This document shows, one piece after another, positions 698-50,185 of a stretch of 64,000 bases of DNA. The stretch lies in IMG/VR virus record IMGVR_UViG_2909262264_000005; one strand, 5' to 3'. Within the stretch, counting starts at the first letter, position 1. Each line of letters begins with the position of its first letter. The position numbers and the translations under genes were made by a program. The notes under the pieces are model-generated. The model was not told where the DNA came from. It worked only from the letters and a program-made list of their open reading frames with translations, and ran no database searches. The stretch comes from a virus. Its lineage: Duplodnaviria; Heunggongvirae; Uroviricota; Caudoviricetes.

Positions 698-1060
698 GGG
701 GCTGATTCTGGATTCGACGGGATTTGCGAAACCCAAGGTGCATGCCGAGGGGCGGTTGGCCTCGTAAAAAGCCGCAAAAAATAGTCGCAAACGACGAAAA
801 CTACGCTTTAGCAGCTTAATAACCTGCTTAGAGCCCTCTCTCCCTAGCCTCCGCTCTTAGGACGGGGATCAAGAGAGGTCAAACCCAAAAGAGATCGCGT
901 GGAAGCCCTGCCTGGGGTTGAAGCGTTAAAACTTAATCAGGCTAGTTTGTTAGTGGCGTGTCCGTCCGCAGCTGGCAAGCGAATGTAAAGACTGACTAAG
1001 CATGTAGTACCGAGGATGTAGGAATTTCGGACGCGGGTTCAACTCCCGCCAGCTCCACCA
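698..1060 (+). ncRNA. ssrA: tmRNA (SsrA)
   Basis: Starts GGGGCTGATTCTGGATTCGACGG, ends GGGTTCAACTCCCGCCAGCTCCACCA; internal tag reading frame gcaaacgacgaaaactacgctttagcagcttaa encodes ANDENYALAA-stop. Confidence 0.95.
1034..1060 (+). repeat. 27-bp att core at ssrA 3' end (left junction of tandem prophage array)
   Basis: cgggttcaactcccgccagctccacca is repeated exactly at 45414-45440 next to an integrase gene. Confidence 0.75.
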
Positions 1061-5721: not shown

Positions 5722-8700
5722 TCAGCTGATACTGATGCCTGCGGTGGCTTTCTTCATCACCACAACCAGCAAATCGCTGATACTTGCTGTGGGATACCAG
5801 TCATTTACCAGCCACGCTGACACCGAAAACTCCAGCGTCATGTGACCGTGACCAGCCGGCATATCAATAACACCACTGTAAATCAGCGTATTATCCAGCG
5901 CGGTACGGTTATAAATTTCAGCGCCGTTTTTCCGTACGATCAGACGGCATGAGGAGTAAATATCAGTATGCTCTTTCTCATGTTTAGCGCCACTGAATGC
6001 CACCGCCGGAATAACAATCTGCCGGTCAAACGGCTGATCGTCATAAACCCTGACGGTAATGGTTCCTGATGGCCACCGCTCCGGTGCACGGGAGTCCCGG
6101 GGGAAAGCTTTGCCCACTGTTTTAACGAGATCGCCTTCAATCTGGTTCGCGGACAGTTTTCCCAGAACCCGACAGTTCTCGTTAATCGTGACGTTGTTGA
6201 GCGTCCCGGAGTTCGCATTCACGTTACCGCTGATATCGGCATTTTTCGCCGTCAGCCGTCCGTCCGGTGTCAGGGAAAATGCCGGAGGATTACCGCCGCT
6301 GGTAATGGTCGGAGCCGTCAGGCGTTTCAGGAACACGTCGTTCATGAATATCTGATCGCCCTGACCAACAAACATTGGTCTTGTGTTGCCATTAGACGGA
6401 TCAATAAACGCGATACGGTTAGCGGCAACCAGGAACTGGCTCAGTTTGCCTTCCTCCGTATCCTCCATGCTGAGGCCAATACCCGCGACATAATGTTTGC
6501 CGTCTTTGGTCTGCTCAATTTTGACGCCCCACATGGCATTCCACTTATCACTGGCGTCCTTCCACTCTTTCGAAAACTCCTCCAGTTTGCTGGCGTTATC
6601 CTCCGTCAGCTCGACTTTTTCCAGCAGCTCCTTGCCGAGATGGGATTCGGTTATCTGGCCTTTGAAAAAATCCAGGTAACCTTCCGCATCATCGCTCGCC
6701 CGACCAACAGCCTCCACGAATGCCGATTTGCCAACGGTGTTCACACTGCGGATATAAAAGTAATAATCATGGCCCGGTTTGATATTGATACTGGCGGCTA
6801 TCCAGTACAGCGCCGTACCAAGATAGCGGGCTGTGGTTTCAACCTGCCTGATATCGGTAATCCGCTTTTCCGAGAACCAGAACTCAAACTGTACCGTCGG
6901 ATCATAAACCGCAAGATGCGGCGTGGCGGTGATCTGAAAATAGCCCGGCGTCAGCTCAATCCGCGACGGCGCTGCCGGTGCGGCAATCCGGAACGATACC
7001 GACGCCGGATCGCCCTGCTGTCCCCACGCATTTACCGCCCGGACTGTCAGCCTGTAGTTTCCCAGCGCCAGCTGCCTGAAGCGGTATGTGGTTTCCGTCG
7101 TCCGGGCCGTGCTGACCAGCCGCTCACTGCCGTCATCCGCTGCCACGGCCAGGCGAAGCAGGAAGCTCACGCCCTTCACCACCTTCGGCGTGTCCCAGCG
7201 CGCCAGCACCTGATATTCCCCGCTGTCTGCGGTGACTTCTGCGGTCAGGTGCTGCACTGCTGGCGGCGTGACACCATTCACCGTGCCGCTCTGGTCGCCG
7301 TCAAAGTGCGCCCCGTTATCCACGATGGCCTCTTTTTCCGGTACATGCTGCACGGCGGTGATGGCATACGTGCCGTCATCGTTCTCACGGATACTCACGC
7401 AGCGGAACAGGCGCTGGCGCAGCGTCGGCAGCTTCAGCCCCCACACGCTGTATTCAGCAACACCGTCAGGAACACGGCTCACTTTCACCTTCACGCCGTC
7501 GGTGACGGACTGGACCTCCACGCTGACCGGATTGCCATTTCCGTCAACCAGGCTTATCAGCGTGGTACCGGAGGATGGCAGCGTGATTTCACGGTCGAGC
7601 GTCAGCGTCCGGGTCTGGCTGTTCACCGCCAGCACGCGACCACCGGTGCTGATACCGGCATAGTCATCATCGCAGATTTCAATGACATCGCCCGGTACAT
7701 GGCGAAGCCCTTCAGCACCCACGCTGAAATCCACGGTCTGCGTCTCCAGCAGTTCCGTTTTAATCAGCCACAGCCCGGCGCGGTGTGCCTGCCCCCGGCT
7801 GGTACAGCCAAAGGCATCCATCTTCGTGACATTACGACCGTAACGGGCAATGGCCTGCGTATCTTCAACAAGCTCTGTCGCCGTCTCCCAGCCGTTGTTC
7901 GGGTCAATCCAGTTCACCTCAACGGCATTATGGCGGTCCTTCAGGGCGCTGAAGCTGTAGCGGAACGGCGCGCCATCATCCGGCATCACCACATTACTGC
8001 GGTTATAGGTCCACACCTTATCCGACGGTCGGTCCTGCACGAACGTCAGCGTCTGCCCGTTCCATACCGGCATACAGCGCATCGCCGAGCAGAAATCACT
8101 GAGCACATCCCACGCCTTGCGCTGTGTGGTCAGGTACGCATTACAGGTGATGCGCGGCTCCGTGCCGCCAAAGCCGTCCGGCACTGACTGGTCGCAGTAC
8201 TGGCCGATGACATACAGCGCCCATTTGTCCACATCCGCCGCACCAAGACGTTTCCCCATGCCGTAGCGCGGGTGGGTCAGCATATCCCACAGACACCAGG
8301 CCATGTTGTTGCTGTATGCTGGTTTTAACGTTCCGTCCCAGATACCGCTGTATTGTCGCGTCTGCGGGTTATAGTTCGACGGCACCTGCAGAATGCGCCC
8401 GCGAAGATGATAATTACGACTCACCTGCTGGCTGCCGAACTGCTCCGAGTCCACCTGTACGCCGACCAGTGCAGTGTTCGGGTAGCACTGTTTCACATCG
8501 ATGATTTCGGTGTATGACGACCAGAGCGTTTTGTTCTGCAGCTGGTCTGTGGTGCTGTCCGGCGTCATCCTGCGCATCCGTATATTGAACGGGCGCGGCG
8601 GCAGGTTACCCACCACCACCGAGGCCAGATACTGCGAGGTGGTTTTGCCCTTAATGGTGATGTCTTTTTCCGTCACCCAGCCACCATTACGCTGGATCTG

Positions 8701-26740: not shown

Positions 26741-26815
<75 letters not shown>

Positions 26816-33450: not shown

Positions 33451-34877
33451 AAGAAACGCTCCATCTTACTGCTGTCAGTTCGTTTGTTGCTGTATCTGCG
33501 CGGCTGGGGCTGCTGCATTGGGGTAGAAAGAATCTGTGCGCTTTCCTGATCCACAGGCAGAAAATGTCCGTTATAAAAACGCCGGTAAATCGTTCCCAGA
33601 GAACCGTTACGTTGTTTCGTGATATTGATTTCTGCGATGCCCCTGGCCTGCGTATCCGGGTTGTACACTTCATCCCTGTAAAGCATCAGAATGATGTCTG
33701 CATCCGCCTCTATTTCTCCGGAATTTTTCAGGTCTGAGTTCATGGGGCGTTTGTTGGGTCTGGACTCCACACCGCGGGAGAGCTGGCTCAGCGCAATCAA
33801 CGGAAAACCACCGGATTTTGCCAGGCCTTTAAGCCCCTTTGAGATTTCACCAACGGCAAGGTCATGACGCCCCGTGGTTCGGGTTTTTATCAGTCCGAGA
33901 TAATCAACCACCACCAGCGCCGTTTCCGGATGTTTAATCAGGTGGTGTTTCGTTGTTGCGCATATCTCGTCAATGGTCAGGTTCGCCTGGTCCACCATCC
34001 AGATATTGCGCCCGGTCATCCGCCCCACTCCTTGTGAGAAACGTGCCCAGTCTTCGTCTTCAAAGTGAGTGACAGATTTCAGGCGTGATACCGGCATTCC
34101 TCCAGCCGCAGATACCATGCGCTCACCAATCTGGATGTTCGCCATTTCCATTGTGAACAGAAGAACACCGCGCCCCTGTTCAGTCACCTTGTCGATGATA
34201 TCCAGCGCCAGTTCGGTTTTGCCCATCGAAGGACGAGCAGCAATAAATACCAGGTCGCCAGGCTCCATGCCGCCCGTTTTTGCGTCCAGTTCATCAATAC
34301 CGGTCATCAACGTCCTGGATTTCTCCAGCCCCTGATTCCGGCATTCAACACGCTCAACCACTTCCGGAAGCACATCATCAATATGTACCGGCTGAATAAC
34401 GCCCTTTTCCGTCGACAATGAGGCCATCATGTTCTGCGCATCCTTCAGAGCATCTTCAGCTGCTTCACAGGTATGCGCATCACGTAATTTCTGCAGCGCC
34501 TCATTCAGTGTTTTTTCTGCATCACGCAATGCGGCATTACGCCGCAACGCCGTAACATAGTGCTCCAGTGACGACTTCACCCAGGTTTTGCGCCCGGTAT
34601 CAGTAATCACCGGGGCAAGTTCCGGCATCTCATTACACAACAGCACAGGGTCAATCACGCCTGAAACACGGGCCTGTCGGCAGATGCCTGTGTAGATATC
34701 CCGATACGCTCGTACAGAAAAAACGTCTGCCGGCAATGTGGCCAGAATATCCATCACTTCATGATCTGCCCCTCGCAGAAAAAACGCGCCAATGACAGCG
34801 CCTTCCAGGTCATCGTTACGCCAGACAGGAGAAGTCATGCTGCCACACCTCCGATATGTGCACGGTAACTTTCCCAA
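33447..34877 (-). CDS. Replicative DNA helicase (DnaB family)
   Basis: 476 aa; Walker A ARPSMGKTE, RecA-like C-terminal domain. Confidence 0.9.
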   Translation of the reverse strand: MGKLPCTYRRCGSMTSPVWRNDDLEGAVIGAFFLRGADHEVMDILATLPADVFSVRAYRDIYTGICRQARVSGVIDPVLLCNEMPELAPVITDTGRKTWVKSSLEHYVTALRRNAALRDAEKTLNEALQKLRDAHTCEAAEDALKDAQNMMASLSTEKGVIQPVHIDDVLPEVVERVECRNQGLEKSRTLMTGIDELDAKTGGMEPGDLVFIAARPSMGKTELALDIIDKVTEQGRGVLLFTMEMANIQIGERMVSAAGGMPVSRLKSVTHFEDEDWARFSQGVGRMTGRNIWMVDQANLTIDEICATTKHHLIKHPETALVVVDYLGLIKTRTTGRHDLAVGEISKGLKGLAKSGGFPLIALSQLSRGVESRPNKRPMNSDLKNSGEIEADADIILMLYRDEVYNPDTQARGIAEINITKQRNGSLGTIYRRFYNGHFLPVDQESAQILSTPMQQPQPRRYSNKRTDSSKMERFF

Positions 34878-35744: not shown

Positions 35745-36554
35745 TCACCAGTTGAAGTTCGTTGAACCGTAGTCCTGCTCACTGAATCCCGAGATCGGGA
35801 GGCCGGTAGTTCGCCCACCTCCGGGAGCGGCTGGCTGTTGCCAGGATTCCTCGAAATGGCGATCGGGTCCAAAGAACGTCGCGGCCTGCTTCACGAACTG
35901 TGTGCCGGTATTTCCTGTTGCACGTACCCAGGCGGCATACCGCTTCACGCCATCAAGCATGACTTCAGGTTTTATTCCCTCCCTGAGACGGGCTTTCCAG
36001 GCTTTGAAGGCTGCTGACTTGGAATTACCACCAGCACGTTTGGGATATTCCTGCCAGGCCTGTTCAAATTCCGGTGAATATTCCTGTCGGGCAGAGCGCG
36101 CTGGTGCAGACGCGTCAGCGGATGCGCCAATAGTTGATTCATTGACTGGTTCTTTGACTGGTTCAAAAGAGTGACTGGTTCTGGGTGAATCTCCTGCACT
36201 ACCCCCTGGTGCAACTCCTGCACCACCTGGTGAATTTGCTGCACTAGGTAGTGAATTATTTGCACTACCACCTGGTGAATCTTTTGCACCATCAAGACGA
36301 AGAAGATAAATATTGCTCGAGTTCCCTTTTTCACCTTTCCGGGAAACTTTTTTTACCAGTCCCGATTCACAAAGAGCCGTAATATGATTCATCACAGAAC
36401 GTTTGCTAATCTCGCACTGATCAGCAATATGCTGATAGCTGGGCCAGCACTCGCCCTGATCGCTGGCATTATCAGCCAGCTTAATCAGAACCAGTTTTCG
36501 CAACGGATTTCCCACACGAATTTTCATCGCTTTCACCATCAGCTCCATGCTCAT
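35745..36554 (-). CDS. Replication initiator (O-like) with N-terminal HTH
   Basis: 269 aa; HTH at N-terminus; central repetitive PGG/SAG linker encoded by iteron-like DNA repeats. Confidence 0.65.
   Translation of the reverse strand: MSMELMVKAMKIRVGNPLRKLVLIKLADNASDQGECWPSYQHIADQCEISKRSVMNHITALCESGLVKKVSRKGEKGNSSNIYLLRLDGAKDSPGGSANNSLPSAANSPGGAGVAPGGSAGDSPRTSHSFEPVKEPVNESTIGASADASAPARSARQEYSPEFEQAWQEYPKRAGGNSKSAAFKAWKARLREGIKPEVMLDGVKRYAAWVRATGNTGTQFVKQAATFFGPDRHFEESWQQPAAPGGGRTTGLPISGFSEQDYGSTNFNW
36181..36316. repeat. Candidate replication origin: five ~21-bp direct repeats plus AT-rich tract inside O-like gene
   Basis: Units ctgggtgaatctcctgcact / accccctggtgcaactcctgcacc / acctggtgaatttgctgcact / aggtagtgaattatttgcact / accacctggtgaatcttttgcacc followed by atcaagacgaagaagataaatattgc. 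Confidence 0.5.
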
Positions 36555-36775
36555 AACACACCTCCCAGGCGTTTAAACATTTTTCCGGACTGAAACGCCA
36601 CCAGTGGGTAACTGATGGTGTAGTTACGCCCCAGTAATTCACACACGACTTTCTGGCTTTCGGTACTGACCAGGCAAACCCGCAGAACGTGACCGTTGCT
36701 GGTGGCGAACCACTGCCCCACACGGGGGCAACGGTTGTATCGGTGATACAGGGAATTAACGATGCGACGAATCAT
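36551..36775 (-). CDS. Hypothetical protein (74 aa)
   Basis: ORF coupled to flanking early genes. Confidence 0.4.
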   Translation of the reverse strand: MIRRIVNSLYHRYNRCPRVGQWFATSNGHVLRVCLVSTESQKVVCELLGRNYTISYPLVAFQSGKMFKRLGGVL

Positions 36776-37005
36776 GGGCGCTCCTCCTGCACATCAGCCA
36801 TGAGCATTTTGCTGGCTGTTTCCAGCGCCTGGTCGGCGCTAATTTGCATGACAGCCAGTGAATGAGGAACAAAAGCACCGGCATATTCTGTTTCACTGGT
36901 GGCGTGTTTATGCGCCATATCTGCGATAACAGAGATGTCAATCAGTGCATCCATCAGGGTTTTAATTACCGTAACAGAGGTGTCTGAATAATGGTTATTA
37001 CACAT
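36772..37005 (-). CDS. Hypothetical protein (77 aa)
   Basis: ATG at 37005 preceded by GGGAGG. Confidence 0.45.
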   Translation of the reverse strand: MCNNHYSDTSVTVIKTLMDALIDISVIADMAHKHATSETEYAGAFVPHSLAVMQISADQALETASKMLMADVQEERP

Positions 37006-37363
37006 GGCGCGCCTCCCATTGATTACGGCGAAAAGCGGTGTGACTGAGGCTGGTTTCTGCCTTATGGAATGCTTCAATACAGCTCTCGTAGTACCGCATT
37101 GTGCGCAGACTTAACCCAAGCTGAAGCATCATCAGGCCGTCAAGGGTGATGTAATAACCACGCAGGGAATCGCCATACACGTGGTAAGTACCCGGTATGA
37201 AATTACGGGAGAAGAATTCACGCGAGCAGTTCAAATACTCGATTTTGTCGACGATGTTCTGGTGCATGCGCTTAAAGTGGCAGGCAACATGCAGGGAGAA
37301 AATAACAGCTTTGCCGTTGACGACTTCAATTTTGAGGAATGAGTGGGTTGGGACTGTAGCCAT
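36998..37363 (-). CDS. Hypothetical early protein (121 aa)
   Basis: ATG at 37363 preceded by AAGGAGG; the listed 221-aa ORF upstream extension lacks an RBS and is low-complexity. Confidence 0.5.
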   Translation of the reverse strand: MATVPTHSFLKIEVVNGKAVIFSLHVACHFKRMHQNIVDKIEYLNCSREFFSRNFIPGTYHVYGDSLRGYYITLDGLMMLQLGLSLRTMRYYESCIEAFHKAETSLSHTAFRRNQWEARHV

Positions 37364-37526
37364 GATGGCAACCTCCTTGAGCAGTGAAAGACTTCCACCA
37401 CCGGAGGTTCCAAGCTCGCTGGTGGCGGACTGAACAGGGTTGGAACTACCGGCGCTCAAGGAAACCGGCGAGCCTTTCGGCTCCCCTGCCCAGCCCACCA
37501 TAATTCTGGCGTGCGCGAGCATGGAC

Positions 37527-37552
37527 GATAAAAAAGACGCTGGCGCGTCGTA
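37527..37552 (-). terminator. Intrinsic terminator within early-right operon (tR1-like)
   Basis: Minus-strand gacgcgccagcgtc hairpin followed by ttttttat. Confidence 0.5.
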
Positions 37553-37752
37553 TATCGCCTCGAGCAATTCCGGGGTTCCAATCCCGGCACCCGCTTTATA
37601 AGGTGCCGGAACAGTGTAACGTCCCGAAATTGCAGAATCAATATTTAGGCTTGAAACATTCATATGCTTACTGGTATTTTTACTAACGCAAATGTTCTTG
37701 GATGTTACTGGCTTACTTCTTTTGTGAAGTTGCCTTTACTAACGTTGAGCGA

Positions 37753-37777
37753 GCCGGGCCACTGCCCGGCTTTTTTT
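37753..37777 (+). terminator. Plus-strand intrinsic terminator antisense to early operon
   Basis: gccgggc-cact-gcccggc followed by ttttttt. Confidence 0.5.
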
Positions 37778-38484
37778 CACCGCTGCCAACCAATAACCTG
37801 AAATAACCCCATTTTCGGGTGATACCAGCGAGTCCCTCGCGGTTCTGCTTCCTCCATAACCCGATAAAAAGCAGCCATAAACGGTTCCACAGCAACAATT
37901 GCGCGACGTGATAACAATCCATCCGGTGTCATAAACTCGTGGGTATCGGTAGGAATTTGATAAGCGTTCACCAGATTGCGGCATTTATCATCTGACAAAC
38001 CGGTTTTCGCTTTCAGTTGGCGATATCCGGCATAGCCCTCACGAATGGTACCCCTTTTGATTTGCTCAACTGTTTCGGCAACATGGCTGACTTTTTCTTC
38101 CACCTGAGTGATCCGTTTCTGCTGACGAACGGCTTCAAGAGCCATCGCAGCAACCATTTCGATTTCGCTCATTGGCTTACGGATCTGTTCTTCCAGTTCG
38201 CGCCAGCGATCTACCAGGCGAGCAGTGAATTCAGGACAGAGCTGTGCGACGACAATAATGCTGTCGCGCTTACCTTGTTCTCCTTCAAACAGGTAATGCT
38301 CATATTGAACTTTAAAACCTAAGTTATTGATTCTTTCGGAAACCTCAATTTGAGGAGACCGGACAACGCCACCTTTGGCTAATGTTTCAATAGTGCGTTT
38401 CACATTGTCATGACGTTTACCCACCAGCTCTGCGATTTCAACGCTGGTCATGGATACTTTGTCGTTAAAAATTGCAGCGTTCAT
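37777..38484 (-). CDS. Rha-family phage regulatory protein (antirepressor-like)
   Basis: N-terminal VSMTSVEIAELVGKRHDNVKRTIETL motif; start set at the MNAAIF ATG. Confidence 0.65.
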   Translation of the reverse strand: MNAAIFNDKVSMTSVEIAELVGKRHDNVKRTIETLAKGGVVRSPQIEVSERINNLGFKVQYEHYLFEGEQGKRDSIIVVAQLCPEFTARLVDRWRELEEQIRKPMSEIEMVAAMALEAVRQQKRITQVEEKVSHVAETVEQIKRGTIREGYAGYRQLKAKTGLSDDKCRNLVNAYQIPTDTHEFMTPDGLLSRRAIVAVEPFMAAFYRVMEEAEPRGTRWYHPKMGLFQVIGWQR

Positions 38485-38655
38485 TGTTGCCTCTTTACGA
38501 AAAACCATGATTAACCTCTAGCTTTCCCTGTCTTTTCCGCACTTCTTGTACGGTGATATTATTCAGTGCCGGATGCTTACCCGTGTCCGGCGCACGACCA
38601 CACGTAGCCGCGTGTTGGTCTCCATTTTCAATTCAGCTCTCAATGGAGGATAAAA

Positions 38656-38901
38656 ATGTCAAATACCCAACATCTAAAAGCGGCGGATCCCGTTTTACGC
38701 CTCAATGCACTTGAAACGGTTGTTCGGGCGATGCTGTCGAGCATGACACCCGAGCAAATAAACAAAGCGCGATTGATTGCTACTCGTGGTGCCCAATTAG
38801 CAGCCCTAGATCCATTGCTCACTCCTGCGAATCGCGAAGATGTAGAGCACATTCAGGGGATGGTTGATTATTTATTCGCCCATATTCCTGATCAGATTTG
38901 A
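38656..38901 (+). CDS. Hypothetical protein (81 aa), opposite orientation to flanking early genes
   Basis: GGAGG RBS 6 nt upstream of ATG. Confidence 0.5.
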   Translation: MSNTQHLKAADPVLRLNALETVVRAMLSSMTPEQINKARLIATRGAQLAALDPLLTPANREDVEHIQGMVDYLFAHIPDQI

Positions 38902-38982
38902 TTCTTTGAACCATAATTTCAGCGATACGAATGGCCGCCGCTTCGAGTCTGGCGGCTTCTTTATCTGCATAAGAGCTACCCA

Positions 38983-46917: not shown

Positions 46918-48351
46918 TCAAGGCTGCCCAGTCTTACCAGCATCAGCAGAAACAGCTTTGAGGATATAGGGTTCCAGAAGTCTGGCAACAGCTTCAAATA
47001 CTGGCACCACAACTGAGTTACCGAACTGCCGATATGACTGAGTATCTGAAACCGGAATACGGAATGGTTTCCCTCCAGGTTTTTCAAATCCCATAAGGCG
47101 TGCGCACTCTCGGGGAGTCAGCCTGCGTGGTCGACGAGCCTGATTACTCTCATTCATAAAGTCAGCCTCTCCCGTTGCCATATCCCAACCACGATCAATA
47201 AGAATTTCTGATCCGTCTTTGTGATATCTGGCAGAAAGTGTGCGTGCAATGCTTTCCTTATTCTCAGGATTGACCAACCCAAAGCCAAAACCATTCCCCT
47301 TGGCTGCATGCTTTTTGGCGTAGTTATAAAGGTACTCCCATAGTTTTGGCGTAAGTATATATTTACTGTCGACTACAGGCTCCAGCAATTCACCAAATGA
47401 TGGGCGGTGTTCCGGATAAAAACGACTGATATCACGCAAGGTAAACCCCTTGTGAATATTCAGATCTCGTCTAAATCCGACCAGAACAATACGTTCACGA
47501 TGCTGAGGCAAAAAATGCTTCCCATCGATAATCTTTGGATCGTTTTTTCCCATTTCTGCAGCATCGGCAACTTCGTAGCCCAGCTCGTCAAGGGTCTCCA
47601 TAATGACTTTGAAAGTTTTACCCTTATCATGGCTCTTCAGATTTTTGACATTTTCCAGCACAAAAATTGCCGGTTTTTTTGCTCGTATAATACGTGCCAC
47701 GTCAAAAAAAAGTGTTCCTTGTGCTTCACATTCAAAACCATGCGCACGACCAAGTGAGTTTTTCTTACTAACACCAGCAAGGCTAAATGGCTGGCACGGG
47801 AACCCCGCAAGAAGCACATCATGATCCGGCACATGCTCATCAATATATGCATAAGCATCCGTTTCCAATACATCGGTTTTATCACTCAGCGTGACTTCCC
47901 GAATATCGAGATTGAATTTATGCACCTGTTCATCGTTAAACCAGTTGGCCTTGTATGTACGCACAGCATCTTTATTCCATTCACTGGTAAAAACACACTG
48001 GCCTCCAATGGCCTCAAAACCTTTCCGTATCCCTCCAATTCCAGCAAATAAGTCAATGAAGCGGAAAGCATATTCCGGATGGTTTGCAGGTGGTTCTGGT
48101 AGCATCTTACGCAGAAGAGACTCTTCTACTGAAGTCAACGATTTTGGTAAACACTTGCCATTAATCCAGCGGTTAATGGTTTCACGGCTCCACTCATTTT
48201 TTCCGACTTTTCTCAGTAATTCAGCCACATACTTCTGATCATAGATTTCCAGCACTTTCTCGATAAGCTTTTTATCATTTTCCTGTCGCAGCTTTTCTTC
48301 CGCCTCGGCTTCCTTCAGCAGATGCTGTGCCAACACTTCAAATTCAGACAT
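46918..48351 (-). CDS. DNA cytosine-5 methyltransferase, Dcm / M.EcoRII-like
   Basis: 477 aa from ATG 48351 (GGAGG RBS); motif [14 protein letters not shown] catalytic motif ([11 protein letters not shown]), ENV (FVLENVKNL); recalled as highly similar to E. coli Dcm. Confidence 0.9.
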
Positions 48352-49600: not shown

Positions 49601-50185
49601 TTACACGGTGTCTGGTTCTTCTGGCCACTCAATATCCGGTGCAGTTGATGTATCAACACGGTTCAGCAACACCCGATACTTTTTCCAGGCTTCCAGCAAT
49701 GAGGTTTCTTCCTCCGTTGCGATTTCCAGATCTACAGCATCCTGAAGTGGCGCAATATGCTCACTGGCTACCTGCATCAGGCTGTTTTTTGTTTCTTCCG
49801 CCTCTCGGATCCGGAACAGTTTTTCTGCTTCTGCATCTTTCACCCAGGCTGTGCCGTTCCACTTCTGAAACTCCCCTTCCGGCGATAACCAGGTAACATT
49901 TTCCGGTAACGGACCGAGTTCAGAAATAAATAACGCGTCCCCTGACGCTACGTCATAAACCGTTTTACCCCGATGGTCTTCATCGAGATGCCACGATGCC
50001 TTATCACTGTTGAAAACAGCCACAAAGCCAGCAGGAATATCTGGTGGTGCAATATCGGTACTGTTTGCTGGCAGACCTGTATGAGGCGGAATATATGCGT
50101 CACCTTCACCAATAAATTCATTAGTTCCGGCCAGCAGATTATAAATTTTTATGGTCCGTGGTTGTTCACTCATTCTGAATGCCAT
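49601..50185 (-). CDS. Tail fibre assembly protein (Tfa)
   Basis: ~96% identical to the prophage A copy. Confidence 0.8.

Follow-up and report, generated by a model that had tools for sequence, protein, structure and literature searches.

An intergenic segment in the early operon of an E. coli lambdoid prophage very probably encodes an RNA control module of the P1/P7, P4 and Gifsy-1 type

Small RNA modules with a role in phage immunity are known from phages P1 and P7 (immI), the satellite phage P4 and the Salmonella prophage Gifsy-1. The studied members differ in their action: P1 c4 is a translational repressor, P4 CI acts by promoting termination, and Gifsy-1 IsrK is a translational activator. 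In P4, translation of eta from an upstream promoter suppresses the Rho-dependent terminator timm. For the P4 model comprising CI, seqA, eta and kil we draw on a published summary (PMC10111431). For Gifsy-1, IsrK supplied in trans is reported to have a net activating effect, and both Hfq binding and trans-activation of downstream translation by IsrK are known only from Salmonella experiments (PMC4825925).

The DNA analyzed here, referred to as the window, is a stretch of 64,000 nucleotides (IMG/VR record IMGVR_UViG_2909262264_000005) from an E. coli lambdoid prophage. Inside the early operon, which is read on the minus strand, an initial annotation had singled out a segment of about 410 bp (37364-37776) that appeared non-coding, carried terminators on both strands and might serve antitermination control or encode a small RNA on either strand. 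All features it described are present in the sequence, and the segment is indeed regulatory, essentially non-protein and small-RNA-encoding. Judged by its sequence, it is very probably an RNA control module of the P1/P7-immI, P4-immunity or Gifsy-1-isrK type. The module is a well-known and ordinary element, the same device as in the immunity of P1, P7, P4 and Salmonella Gifsy-1, and the apparent non-coding gap needs no new biology because two curated RNA families explain it. The two Rfam matches are adjacent on the minus strand, i.e., the sense strand of the early operon, and the elements are arranged in the order promoter, a1/b1, terminator, C4 RNA, a2/b2 over the Shine-Dalgarno sequence and ATG 37363. 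The isrK and C4 models also match as a pair in P4, Gifsy-1, SfV and APSE-7, and P1 shows matches to the c4-a1b1 family and to C4. Sequence homology to relatives begins just upstream of the -35 element, at about 37646, and further upstream the sequence is mosaic. All counts of alleles, pairing and invariance given below refer to a sample of 64 distinct relatives, which are about 12% diverged and were mostly retrieved by a translated search.

The module opens with an internal promoter on the minus strand (37613..37641), which consists of a -35 element TTGATT (37641-37636), a 17-nt spacer and a -10 element TACACT (37618-37613). With 8/12 matches it falls below the threshold of a generic promoter scan; the stretch is nearly invariant in the 64 relatives. 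Transcription is predicted to start near G37607/G37606 on the minus strand and would produce an IsrK-like leader RNA (37530..37609, minus strand), the counterpart of P4 seqA and of the a1/b1 region in P1. The isrK model (Rfam RF01394) matches 37606-37530 from position 1 to 77 of 77 with 63 bits (threshold 50; E = 1e-11), and the c4-a1b1 family (RF03163) overlaps the leader with a sub-threshold score of 24 bits. In the predicted fold, hairpin 1 (37609-37584) is followed by a second hairpin with a1 (UUGGAAC, 37575..37581) in its loop, by the single-stranded b1 (GCUCGAGG, 37558..37565) and by a terminator. Hairpin 1 corresponds to the hairpin of 8-9 bp, CCGGCACCU...GGGUGCCGG on the minus strand, that had been noticed in the initial annotation.

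The intrinsic terminator or attenuator that closes the leader (37530..37549, minus strand; GACGCGCCAGCGUC followed by U6) was recovered by the terminator scan, with the stem GACGCGCCAGCGTC at 37549-37536 and the T6 run at 37535-37530, and it coincides with the 3' end of the isrK match. It is invariant in the 64 relatives, and equivalents composed of a hairpin and a U run are found at the same place in P4 and Gifsy-1. By count alone, the 5.5-kb surroundings do not stand out for terminator-like sites (8 versus 5.9 +/- 3.0 expected from shuffles). Nevertheless, neither of the two terminators that had been named is a chance occurrence: the minus-strand one is part of the isrK match and invariant, and the plus-strand one has a conserved stem. 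The surroundings of the leader likewise agree with isrK, as its own promoter is located directly upstream and read-through leads into a C4-like RNA and then an antirepressor-type gene.

A genuine terminator in the sense direction of the operon had thus been recognized correctly, and it had been likened to lambda tR1. According to this reading, the minus-strand terminator is a tR1/nutR-like checkpoint that is overcome by an N-type antiterminator, which is consistent with a sense-direction terminator inside the early operon and ahead of the replication genes. We regard this as extremely improbable because the terminator belongs to a full-length isrK match with its own promoter and recurs in the P4, P1-type and APSE modules, which are not N-dependent. 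Moreover, lambda tR1 is a Rho-dependent terminator, whereas the terminator of the IsrK-like leader is intrinsic. An N-like gene was not reported in the initial annotation and none is needed; its absence is irrelevant because the module does not use an antiterminator of this kind.

The central element of the module is a C4/CI-type antisense RNA (37418..37505, minus strand). The C4 model (Rfam RF01695) matches 37505-37418 over its full length with 84 bits (threshold 45; E = 1e-15), and the mature RNA is predicted to span about 37499-37421 based on homology with the 77-nt c4 RNA of P1. Because C4 lies downstream of the IsrK terminator, it is contained only in read-through transcripts. The RNA has a minimum free energy of -49.3 kcal/mol (z = -4.6) and forms a long closing stem around two hairpins, a structure that is supported by covariation: among 27 diverse members, 8 of the 22 predicted pairs show compensatory changes and only 2 cells in total are broken.

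C4 exposes two recognition elements, the hairpin loop b' (CCUUGAGC, 37454..37461, minus strand) and the single-stranded stretch a' (GUUCCAA, 37440..37446, minus strand). These are complementary to the downstream sites a2 (UUGGAAC, 37407..37413, minus strand) and b2 (GCUCAAGG, 37382-37375). The latter overlaps the ribosome-binding site of the next gene, a Shine-Dalgarno sequence AAGGAGG (37378-37372; both elements together 37372..37382, minus strand) that is placed 8 nt before ATG 37363. A second complementary pair, a1/b1 in the leader (seqA), is located upstream on the same transcript and co-varies with a'/b'. In 64/64 relatives, b' matches b2 exactly (8/8) and pairs with b1 over 8/8 positions, one of them a G-U pair. 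The match between a' and a2 is exact (7/7) in 63/64 relatives, and a' is complementary to a1 at 7/7 or 6/7 bases in 64/64. When elements from different loci are combined as a control, full matches drop to 23% for b', 29% for a' and 8.8% for both sites together. The 64 relatives carry four 'a' alleles and five 'b' alleles in 14 combinations. Furthermore, the composite pattern a-N(8-38)-b has exactly two occurrences across the 64 kb of the window, one at a1/b1 and one at a2/b2, against 0 expected by chance.

This fixed-column allele test was used in place of a control based on the longest complementary run, in which C4 was compared with its own and with random other flanks in a broad pattern-based sample. 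The longest-run control is uninformative because many loci share alleles and constant flanks and because G-U pairs are allowed. In an exact 7-mer search, 7-mers of C4 that are complementary to both flanks occur almost only at positions ~39-42 and ~51-55, corresponding to b' and a'. This signal is present in only 64 of the 104 pattern hits, and the other ~40 either are not C4 RNAs (they are devoid of the AACCC motif) or pair over shorter stretches or with G-U pairs.

Expression, processing and repression by the module are all transferred from studied relatives. By this analogy, C4 would be cut from the read-through transcript, as it is by RNase P in P1, and would pair with a2/b2 and block ribosome binding. 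The untranslated RNA would then be terminated prematurely, which is a Rho-dependent step in P1 and P4. As a result, expression of the antirepressor-like gene and of the genes further downstream would be shut off in the lysogen and also upon superinfection by a phage with the same a/b alleles, and the a/b alleles might represent an interchangeable specificity code. The short IsrK-like RNA with its a1/b1 sites might compete for C4 or remodel the long transcript and in this way relieve repression, as Gifsy-1 IsrK does.

On the strand opposite to the RNA genes, an intrinsic terminator (GAGCCGGGCCACUGCCCGGCUU followed by a U run; 37751..37779, plus strand) directly adjoins the stop codon that ends the Rha/Ant-like gene of the minus strand. 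As had been described, it is a proper terminator on this strand, with a stem of 9 pairs (37751-37772; 7 of them G-C) and a T7 run according to the terminator scan; read on the minus strand, the hairpin is not followed by a U run. Among relatives sharing the Rha gene, the stem is conserved and the loop is variable. A scan furthermore returned a promoter-like site (37651..37680, plus strand) with TTGAAA, an 18-nt spacer, TATTTT and an upstream TG, which is not supported by the analyses that follow. Taken together, these elements could specify an OOP-like convergent RNA of about 90 nt, running from near 37687 to the terminator at 37751-37779. The canonical terminator, the suitable spacing of the promoter-like site (9/12 matches plus the upstream TG) and the folding of the 98-nt stretch (z = -4.5) agree with such an RNA. 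Yet, promoter-like sites are no more common than in shuffled sequence, a large group of relatives has AATTCT in place of the -10 element TATTTT, and the body of the RNA is the least conserved part of the region (~72%, with indels), only the terminator stem being kept. In addition, the plus strand has no Rfam match, and the RNA would overlap no start codon but just the last few bases of the Rha gene. We consider an OOP-like RNA improbable, and it was set aside as unsupported after the folding and conservation check. The suggestion of a small RNA on either strand applies to the minus strand with its IsrK-like and C4 RNAs and finds no support on the plus strand. The OOP analogy also fails for C4 itself, which is encoded on the operon's own strand and would pair with sites on its own transcript instead of being a convergent antisense RNA.

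The first protein gene that the module would control (36998..37363, minus strand) encodes a 121-aa antirepressor-like regulator with an N-terminal domain of the Rha/Bro type (Pfam Phage_pRha, 30 bits; phrog_995, 821, 518 and 373). That the true gene begins at the RBS-supported ATG 37363, as proposed earlier, agrees with the clear codon signature from this position onward (codon-position diversity 0.022/0.023/0.123). The gene occupies the place of icd-ant in P1, kil in P4 and anrP in Gifsy-1, and P4 kil has almost the same start context as this gene (GGAGGTTGCCATCATGGCTACA). The domain comparison revealed neither an icd homolog nor the C-terminal domain of typical Ant proteins, and the protein is antirepressor-like by domain family only. 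Two small ORFs and then the replication genes follow downstream. The gene upstream of the module (37777..38508, minus strand) encodes a further Rha/antirepressor-like protein of 243 aa (Pfam Phage_pRha; phrog_63, anti-repressor Ant).

The ATG at 37363 is in frame with a more distal ATG at 37663, which is placed 22 nt upstream of the internal -35 element and opens a 221-aa ORF (36998..37663, minus strand). PGAP labels this ORF 'ash family protein', and Pfam PF10554 (Phage_ASH) matches its residues 16-106, i.e., the IsrK and C4 RNAs, with 57.3 bits (threshold 26). It could therefore be argued that the segment simply codes for an 'Ash' domain at the N-terminus of an Ash/Rha regulator of 221 aa and that the RNA matches are incidental. 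Apart from the Pfam score and the PGAP label, the open frame in close relatives and several PHROG families that include the 'Ash' stretch speak for a protein. However, codon-position diversity is flat across 37609-37364 within the 100-codon extension (0.144/0.119/0.110, i.e., no third-position bias), and in the RNA part the nucleotide identity of 88% exceeds the amino acid identity of 79%. The lack of a codon-position signature indicates that the segment evolves as RNA; purifying selection on amino acids, as expected of a PF10554 protein domain, is not seen. Most variable positions cluster at three sites, which change together as partners in base pairing, two covariance models match, and in P1 and APSE-7 the equivalent frame is interrupted by stop codons. 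In P4, moreover, this Pfam domain maps to neither epsilon nor kil but to the CI RNA, whose C4 match (8420-8507) lies inside the old 'cI' ORF. A protein-only reading is highly improbable, and both the codon statistics and the interrupted frame of P1 and APSE-7 led us to reject it. What is labeled 'Ash' is an RNA immunity switch in translated form. With respect to selection on protein, the initial annotation was right in seeing no convincing ORF here. It was also right that the in-frame extension is without a recognizable Shine-Dalgarno sequence at ATG 37663; the frame itself exists and is open in every relative examined.

A purely non-coding model of the RNA module leaves the conserved open frame across the RNA unexplained. 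The frame is open in 64/64 relatives and in 18/18 loci from a frame-unbiased pattern scan. The arrangement of an ORF that starts upstream of the internal promoter and is in frame with ATG 37363 corresponds to the nested genes of P4, and the 221-aa ORF is a possible counterpart of P4 eta. As an addition to the RNA module, the ORF might be translated only on transcripts that start at the early promoter further upstream and cross the Rha gene, as for eta/kil in P4. Ribosomes crossing IsrK and C4 would then prevent folding of the RNAs, termination and the action of C4. Transcripts from the early promoter would be insensitive to immunity, those from the internal promoter would stay repressed, and the act of translation rather than the peptide would matter. 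We give this addition somewhat less than an even chance.

Several observations are in line with such nested genes. None of the 8 possible stop-creating variants is realized in frame 0 (P = 0.013), while such variants are common in frame 1 (5/12) and frame 2 (9/15), and stops occur in frame 0 in other C4 subfamilies. Shortly before the -35 element, at least 8 unrelated upstream contexts contribute an ATG in frame or an ORF that runs on, one of them with a strong GGGAGGTG Shine-Dalgarno sequence, and in SfV, orf37 shares 4 nt with orf36, which precedes it. P4 offers a precedent according to the published summary (PMC10111431), the kil start context is nearly identical, and Gifsy-1 orf45, which uses the same frame from AUGGUGGG of C4, has been shown to be translated (PMC4825925). 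On the other hand, ATG 37663 is not preceded by a recognizable Shine-Dalgarno sequence and is separated from the Rha stop codon by 114 nt, a gap that makes translational coupling unlikely. The RNA part of the ORF is under no constraint at the amino acid level. The openness of the frame may furthermore in part reflect inheritance or bias, as the relatives are only ~12% diverged and come mostly from a translated search.

More tentatively still, the RNA module and the open frame might combine into a two-input gate ahead of the replication genes and a combinatorial a/b RNA immunity code in a large group of E. coli lambdoid prophages; we consider this rather doubtful. If there were such a gate, C4 would keep the constitutive transcripts of the internal promoter silent. 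On CI-controlled transcripts from the early promoter, ribosomes on the Eta-like ORF, which would be kept open only for that purpose, would pass through the RNA genes and let these transcripts escape silencing. If there were such a code, freely reassorting alleles (4 x 5, sometimes with two modules in tandem) would decide which co-resident or superinfecting phages cross-repress each other's replication.

The element is common. Among 5,426 complete E. coli genomes, 847 match a 551-bp query centered on the element (window positions 37300-37850), many Shiga-toxin phages included, with at least 80% of the query being covered in only 197 of these 847 genomes. Yet, it is routinely annotated as a protein ('Ash') in databases, namely by PGAP, in Pfam PF10554 and in several PHROG families, and in studies on the regulatory region of Stx phages, 'Rha/Ash domain proteins' count as proteins whose function is unknown (PMC8951638). 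Its identity as an RNA switch changes how gene starts, domain architectures and the control of lysis and lysogeny in Stx phages are to be read.

Lambda and the present locus alike carry one terminator within the early-right operon and, close to it, another that points the other way. However, no sequence or structure families are shared with tR1/OOP, and the sense terminator belongs to a small RNA with its own promoter. In contrast to OOP, the regulator is encoded on the same strand as its target and would act on repeated complementary sites, and in contrast to N/nut, the module is accounted for without such a system. The overall interpretation given initially is thus supported in part: its lambda analogies fail and the main small RNA, C4 with its 84 bits, had been missed.

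Gifsy-1 resembles the locus in that isrK is followed by a C4-family RNA (69 bits) and by a2/b2 over the RBS of an antirepressor-like gene (anrP). The short leader RNA likewise ends at an intrinsic terminator, with a long form arising by read-through, and orf45 (STnc1160) begins at AUGGUGGG of C4 in the same frame as the open frame described here. While the Gifsy-1 locus is situated after the Q gene in the late region, the present module lies ahead of the replication genes. Moreover, the stop codon of orf45 overlaps the start of anrP, whereas the frame in the window runs into the downstream gene.

In P4, the isrK and C4 models match in the same order, and replication genes are located downstream as well. 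SeqC overlaps the RBS of the first translated gene (kil), whose start context GGAGG-TGCCATCATGGCTACA is nearly identical, and a longer in-frame ORF (the old 'cI' ORF, or eta) with a Pfam 'Ash' match extends through the RNA. P4 differs in having ~100 extra nt between seqA and CI and in its downstream Kil (65 aa), which is unrelated to the Rha-domain protein. Furthermore, P4 is a satellite phage with a PLE promoter and the element analyzed here is a lambdoid prophage.

The immI region of P1 is located at the start of a C1-operator-controlled operon, whereas the present module is located inside a lambdoid early operon downstream of another gene. Behind b2, it carries a gene with a Rha/Bro domain instead of icd, with no Ant1/2 following. 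The leader matches the isrK model, whereas its match to the c4-a1b1 model is weak (24 bits), and the frame across c4 is closed in P1 and open here. The RNA elements themselves, on the other hand, agree in order and spacing with those of P1/P7 immI: promoter, a1, b1, a terminator-like hairpin, c4, a2 and b2 over the RBS. The internal promoter aligns by hexamer with P1c4 (formerly P51b), which has its -35 element at 48195-48200 and its -10 element at 48218-48223 (NC_005856). The b2 site is placed 11 nt before the icd start in P1, the alignment of the two loci puts the start codon 11-12 nt after b2, and the C4 model scores 68.8 bits on P1's own c4 and 84 bits in the window. As in P1 and P7, a' and b' are complementary to both pairs of target sites, and differences between alleles would provide specificity in the way that they distinguish P1 from P7.

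The segment ahead of the ATG at 37363 is a known RNA regulatory module. The genes of this part of the window are carried on the minus strand, where a Rha/antirepressor-like gene (37777-38508) precedes an ORF at 36998-37663 with a strong Shine-Dalgarno sequence, AAGGAGG, before its internal ATG 37363. In an Rfam scan of the segment, two neighbouring stretches of the minus strand scored above the curated thresholds, one as C4 antisense RNA (RF01695; 37505-37418, 84 bits, threshold 45, E = 1e-15) and one as isrK (RF01394; 37606-37530, 63 bits, threshold 50), and both passed again in a scan of the whole window. A sub-threshold match to RF03163 ("a1, b1 targets of C4") overlaps the isrK match. A minus-strand promoter (-35 TTGATT, 37641-37636; -10 TACACT, 37618-37613; 17-nt spacer) precedes the IsrK-like leader RNA, which extends from about 37607 and contains the target sites a1 (UUGGAAC, 37581-37575, in the loop of the second hairpin) and b1 (GCUCGAGG, 37565-37558) and an intrinsic terminator (37549-37530; stem 37549-37536, T6 37535-37530). 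The C4 RNA (37505-37418) fills the gap from this terminator to the next gene and on its own folds into the family structure (-49.3 kcal/mol, z = -4.6), with the recognition stretches b' (CCUUGAGC, 37461-37454) in a hairpin loop and a' (GUUCCAA, 37446-37440) single-stranded. Downstream lie the target sites a2 (UUGGAAC, 37413-37407) and b2 (GCUCAAGG, 37382-37375), the latter overlapping the Shine-Dalgarno sequence (37378-37372) of the controlled gene. Across the 64 kb of the window the pattern TTGGAAC-N(8-38)-GCTCRAGG has just two occurrences, a1/b1 and a2/b2, against a chance expectation of none.

The initial annotation had correctly sensed a non-coding regulatory segment, and the structures it described are all present. 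Its hairpin CCGGCACCU...GGGUGCCGG (37609-37584, minus strand) forms the IsrK-like RNA's first stem, its minus-strand terminator is the 3' end of that RNA, and its plus-strand terminator has a stem at 37751-37772 followed by T7. The lambda paradigms it invoked (tR1-like and OOP-like) were a misassignment. Terminator-like sites in the neighbourhood (8 vs 5.9 +/- 3.0 in shuffles) do not exceed expectation, and hence the significance of the terminators must rest on other evidence.

Comparative evidence comes from 64 distinct aligned sequences drawn from 80 related viral contigs, an E. coli chromosome and SfV. Homology among them starts at about 37646, just upstream of the -35 element, and is mosaic farther upstream, so that the conserved unit starts at the promoter. 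Variation within this unit clusters in six short patches corresponding to a1, b1, b', a', a2 and b2. Aligned to window positions 37583-37372, the sequences have four 'a' and five 'b' alleles in 14 combinations; the two sets reassort freely. At the same locus, b' pairs with b2 in 8/8 positions in 64/64 relatives, always by Watson-Crick pairs, and with b1 in 8/8 positions in 64/64, including some G-U pairs, while a' pairs with a2 in 7/7 positions in 63/64. Pairings across different loci are complete in only 23% (b), 29% (a) and 8.8% (both). At the sequence level, covariation among the three sites gives direct evidence for C4 action through base pairing with the two sets of targets, and it indicates that the alleles are specificity determinants, as is known for the allele differences between P1 and P7. 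A wider C4 set comprised 27 more diverse sequences, obtained by a pattern scan and taken with P1 and APSE-7; in its closing stem and first hairpin, eight pairs have compensatory changes and hardly any pair is broken. Similar reshuffling is seen among the P1-type C4 RNAs of the pattern sample, for example CACUAA or CACAAU with CUGUCAA or CUGCUAA.

The long ORF raises the question of a protein encoded by the segment. Between 37609 and 37364 the three codon positions have nucleotide diversities of 0.144/0.119/0.110, and identity is higher for nucleotides (88%) than for amino acids (79%), whereas from ATG 37363 on diversity is concentrated in third positions (0.022/0.023/0.123). The real gene start is therefore 37363, and evolution of the segment is that of an RNA. 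In the 221-aa ORF, PF10554 (Phage_ASH) covers residues 16-106, which are the translated IsrK and C4 region; PGAP's 'ash family protein' and six PHROG families (3960, 995, 821, 6928, 29966 and 4908) match the same stretch, which lies at 37346-37618 (minus strand) in the window and at 8330-8521 (minus strand) in P4. In P4, PF10554 coincides exactly with the CI RNA (C4 match 8420-8507) within the old 'cI' ORF, and the Pfam comparison gave no PF10554 match on epsilon (PF25738) or kil. In P1 and APSE-7 the corresponding frame has stop codons, and no protein-level selection was seen on the IsrK and C4 (in P4, CI) region. The 'Ash' protein annotation is thus a conceptual translation of this RNA region. 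The 'Ash' domain serves as a protein marker in papers on Stx phages and P4-like satellites.

The plus-strand hairpin comes immediately after the Rha-like gene's stop codon and has a U run on the plus strand only. Relatives sharing the Rha gene keep its stem but differ in its loop, and the terminator is therefore probably functional. A role in blocking antisense transcription into the Rha gene, or in stabilising the Rha mRNA 3' end, is more likely than one as the end of a conserved OOP-like RNA. There is a single candidate plus-strand promoter (37651-37680), and a large group of relatives has lost its -10 element; no part of the region varies more than the sequence between promoter and terminator, and the Rfam scan of the segment gave no plus-strand match. 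A small plus-strand gene (38656-38901), with a homologue annotated as a bssS family protein in a close relative, lies between the cro-like and Rha-like genes, opposed to the early-operon direction and followed by its own terminator-like site (38937-38956, plus strand).

Based on relatives, from which all steps are taken, the short IsrK-like RNA would be the main product of the internal promoter, and C4 would be carried on read-through transcripts and processed out. Pairing of b' and a' with b2 and a2 would hide the Shine-Dalgarno sequence, and the lack of translation would lead to premature termination, keeping the antirepressor-like gene and those that follow it off in lysogens and during homo-immune superinfection. 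Competition for C4 may come from the IsrK-like RNA or, in cis, from the a1/b1 sites, and early-promoter transcripts may escape through translation across the region.

The module frame is open in 64/64 relatives and, in a frame-unbiased pattern sample, in 18/18 loci belonging to this C4 subtype; the other C4 subtypes of the sample have a closed frame. None of eight possible stop-creating variants occurs in the module frame (P = 0.013); in the two remaining frames such variants are frequent. At least eight upstream sequences that are unrelated to one another all bring an ATG in frame, or an ORF that continues, close before the -35 element; one of them has a strong Shine-Dalgarno sequence. The conserved frame parallels the nested eta/kil genes of P4, whose kil start context is nearly identical to that found here; the P4 long ORF is translated from the upstream promoter only and its translation overrides termination (PMC10111431). 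In Gifsy-1, translation of orf45 was shown experimentally (PMC4825925); this ORF starts at AUGGUGGG, at the 5' end of the C4 homologue, and its frame is that of the open frame here. Translation through the module is a plausible if tentative second layer, with no Shine-Dalgarno sequence visible at ATG 37663 in this window. The conserved frame, the combinatorial allele structure and the evidence for 'Ash' as translated RNA are useful by-products.

The DNA derives from an E. coli prophage. Phage phiP27 shares the 241-bp core at 99.6% identity, and SfV and many Stx1 and Stx2 phages have related sequences. A 551-bp query (37300-37850, module and flanks) matched 847/5,426 complete E. coli genomes, with at least 80% of the query covered in 197 of the 847; in the best matches PGAP names the long ORF 'ash family protein'. 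Some phage contigs carry tandem C4 modules 656 or 1312 nt apart (L018/L019 at 2644 and 3300, L027 at 2656 and 3312, L023 at 1344 and 2656, and L099), and copies within one contig differ in a', b' or both. Elsewhere in the window, two small conserved genes of unknown function (36551-37005, minus strand; 77 aa, phrog_5146, and 74 aa, phrog_1153) separate the C4-controlled gene from an O-like replication gene, and a tRNA gene lies within the prophage region (26744-26815, minus strand; Rfam tRNA, 65.6 bits). The tmRNA gene ssrA (698-1060, plus strand, 296 bits) on the left and two same-strand copies of the Rfam IS009 RNA 48 kb apart (1621-1819 and 49644-49842, minus strand) may mark one or two prophages integrated beside ssrA.

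An isrK leader accompanies a C4-family RNA in P4, Gifsy-1, SfV and APSE-7, and APSE genomes already carry annotation of this kind; P1 combines C4 with a c4-a1b1 leader. The window is collinear with P1 immI, with a1, b1, c4, a2, b2 and the start codon at similar spacings and promoter hexamers coinciding with the annotated P1c4 (P51b). The Gifsy-1 paper (PMC4825925) likens IsrK to P4 seqA and states that a processed downstream RNA (STnc1160) may resemble CI, going no further than this likeness for STnc1160. The orf45 (STnc1160) region of Gifsy-1 (34131-34214, minus strand) is a C4-family RNA (69 bits), and the orf45 stop codon overlaps the anrP start. The module described here differs in its position inside a lambdoid early operon, with a Rha/Ant-like gene on one side and replication genes on the other, and in controlling a 121-aa Rha/Bro-domain protein instead of icd-ant, kil or anrP. 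A third difference is that the frame here runs directly into the controlled gene.
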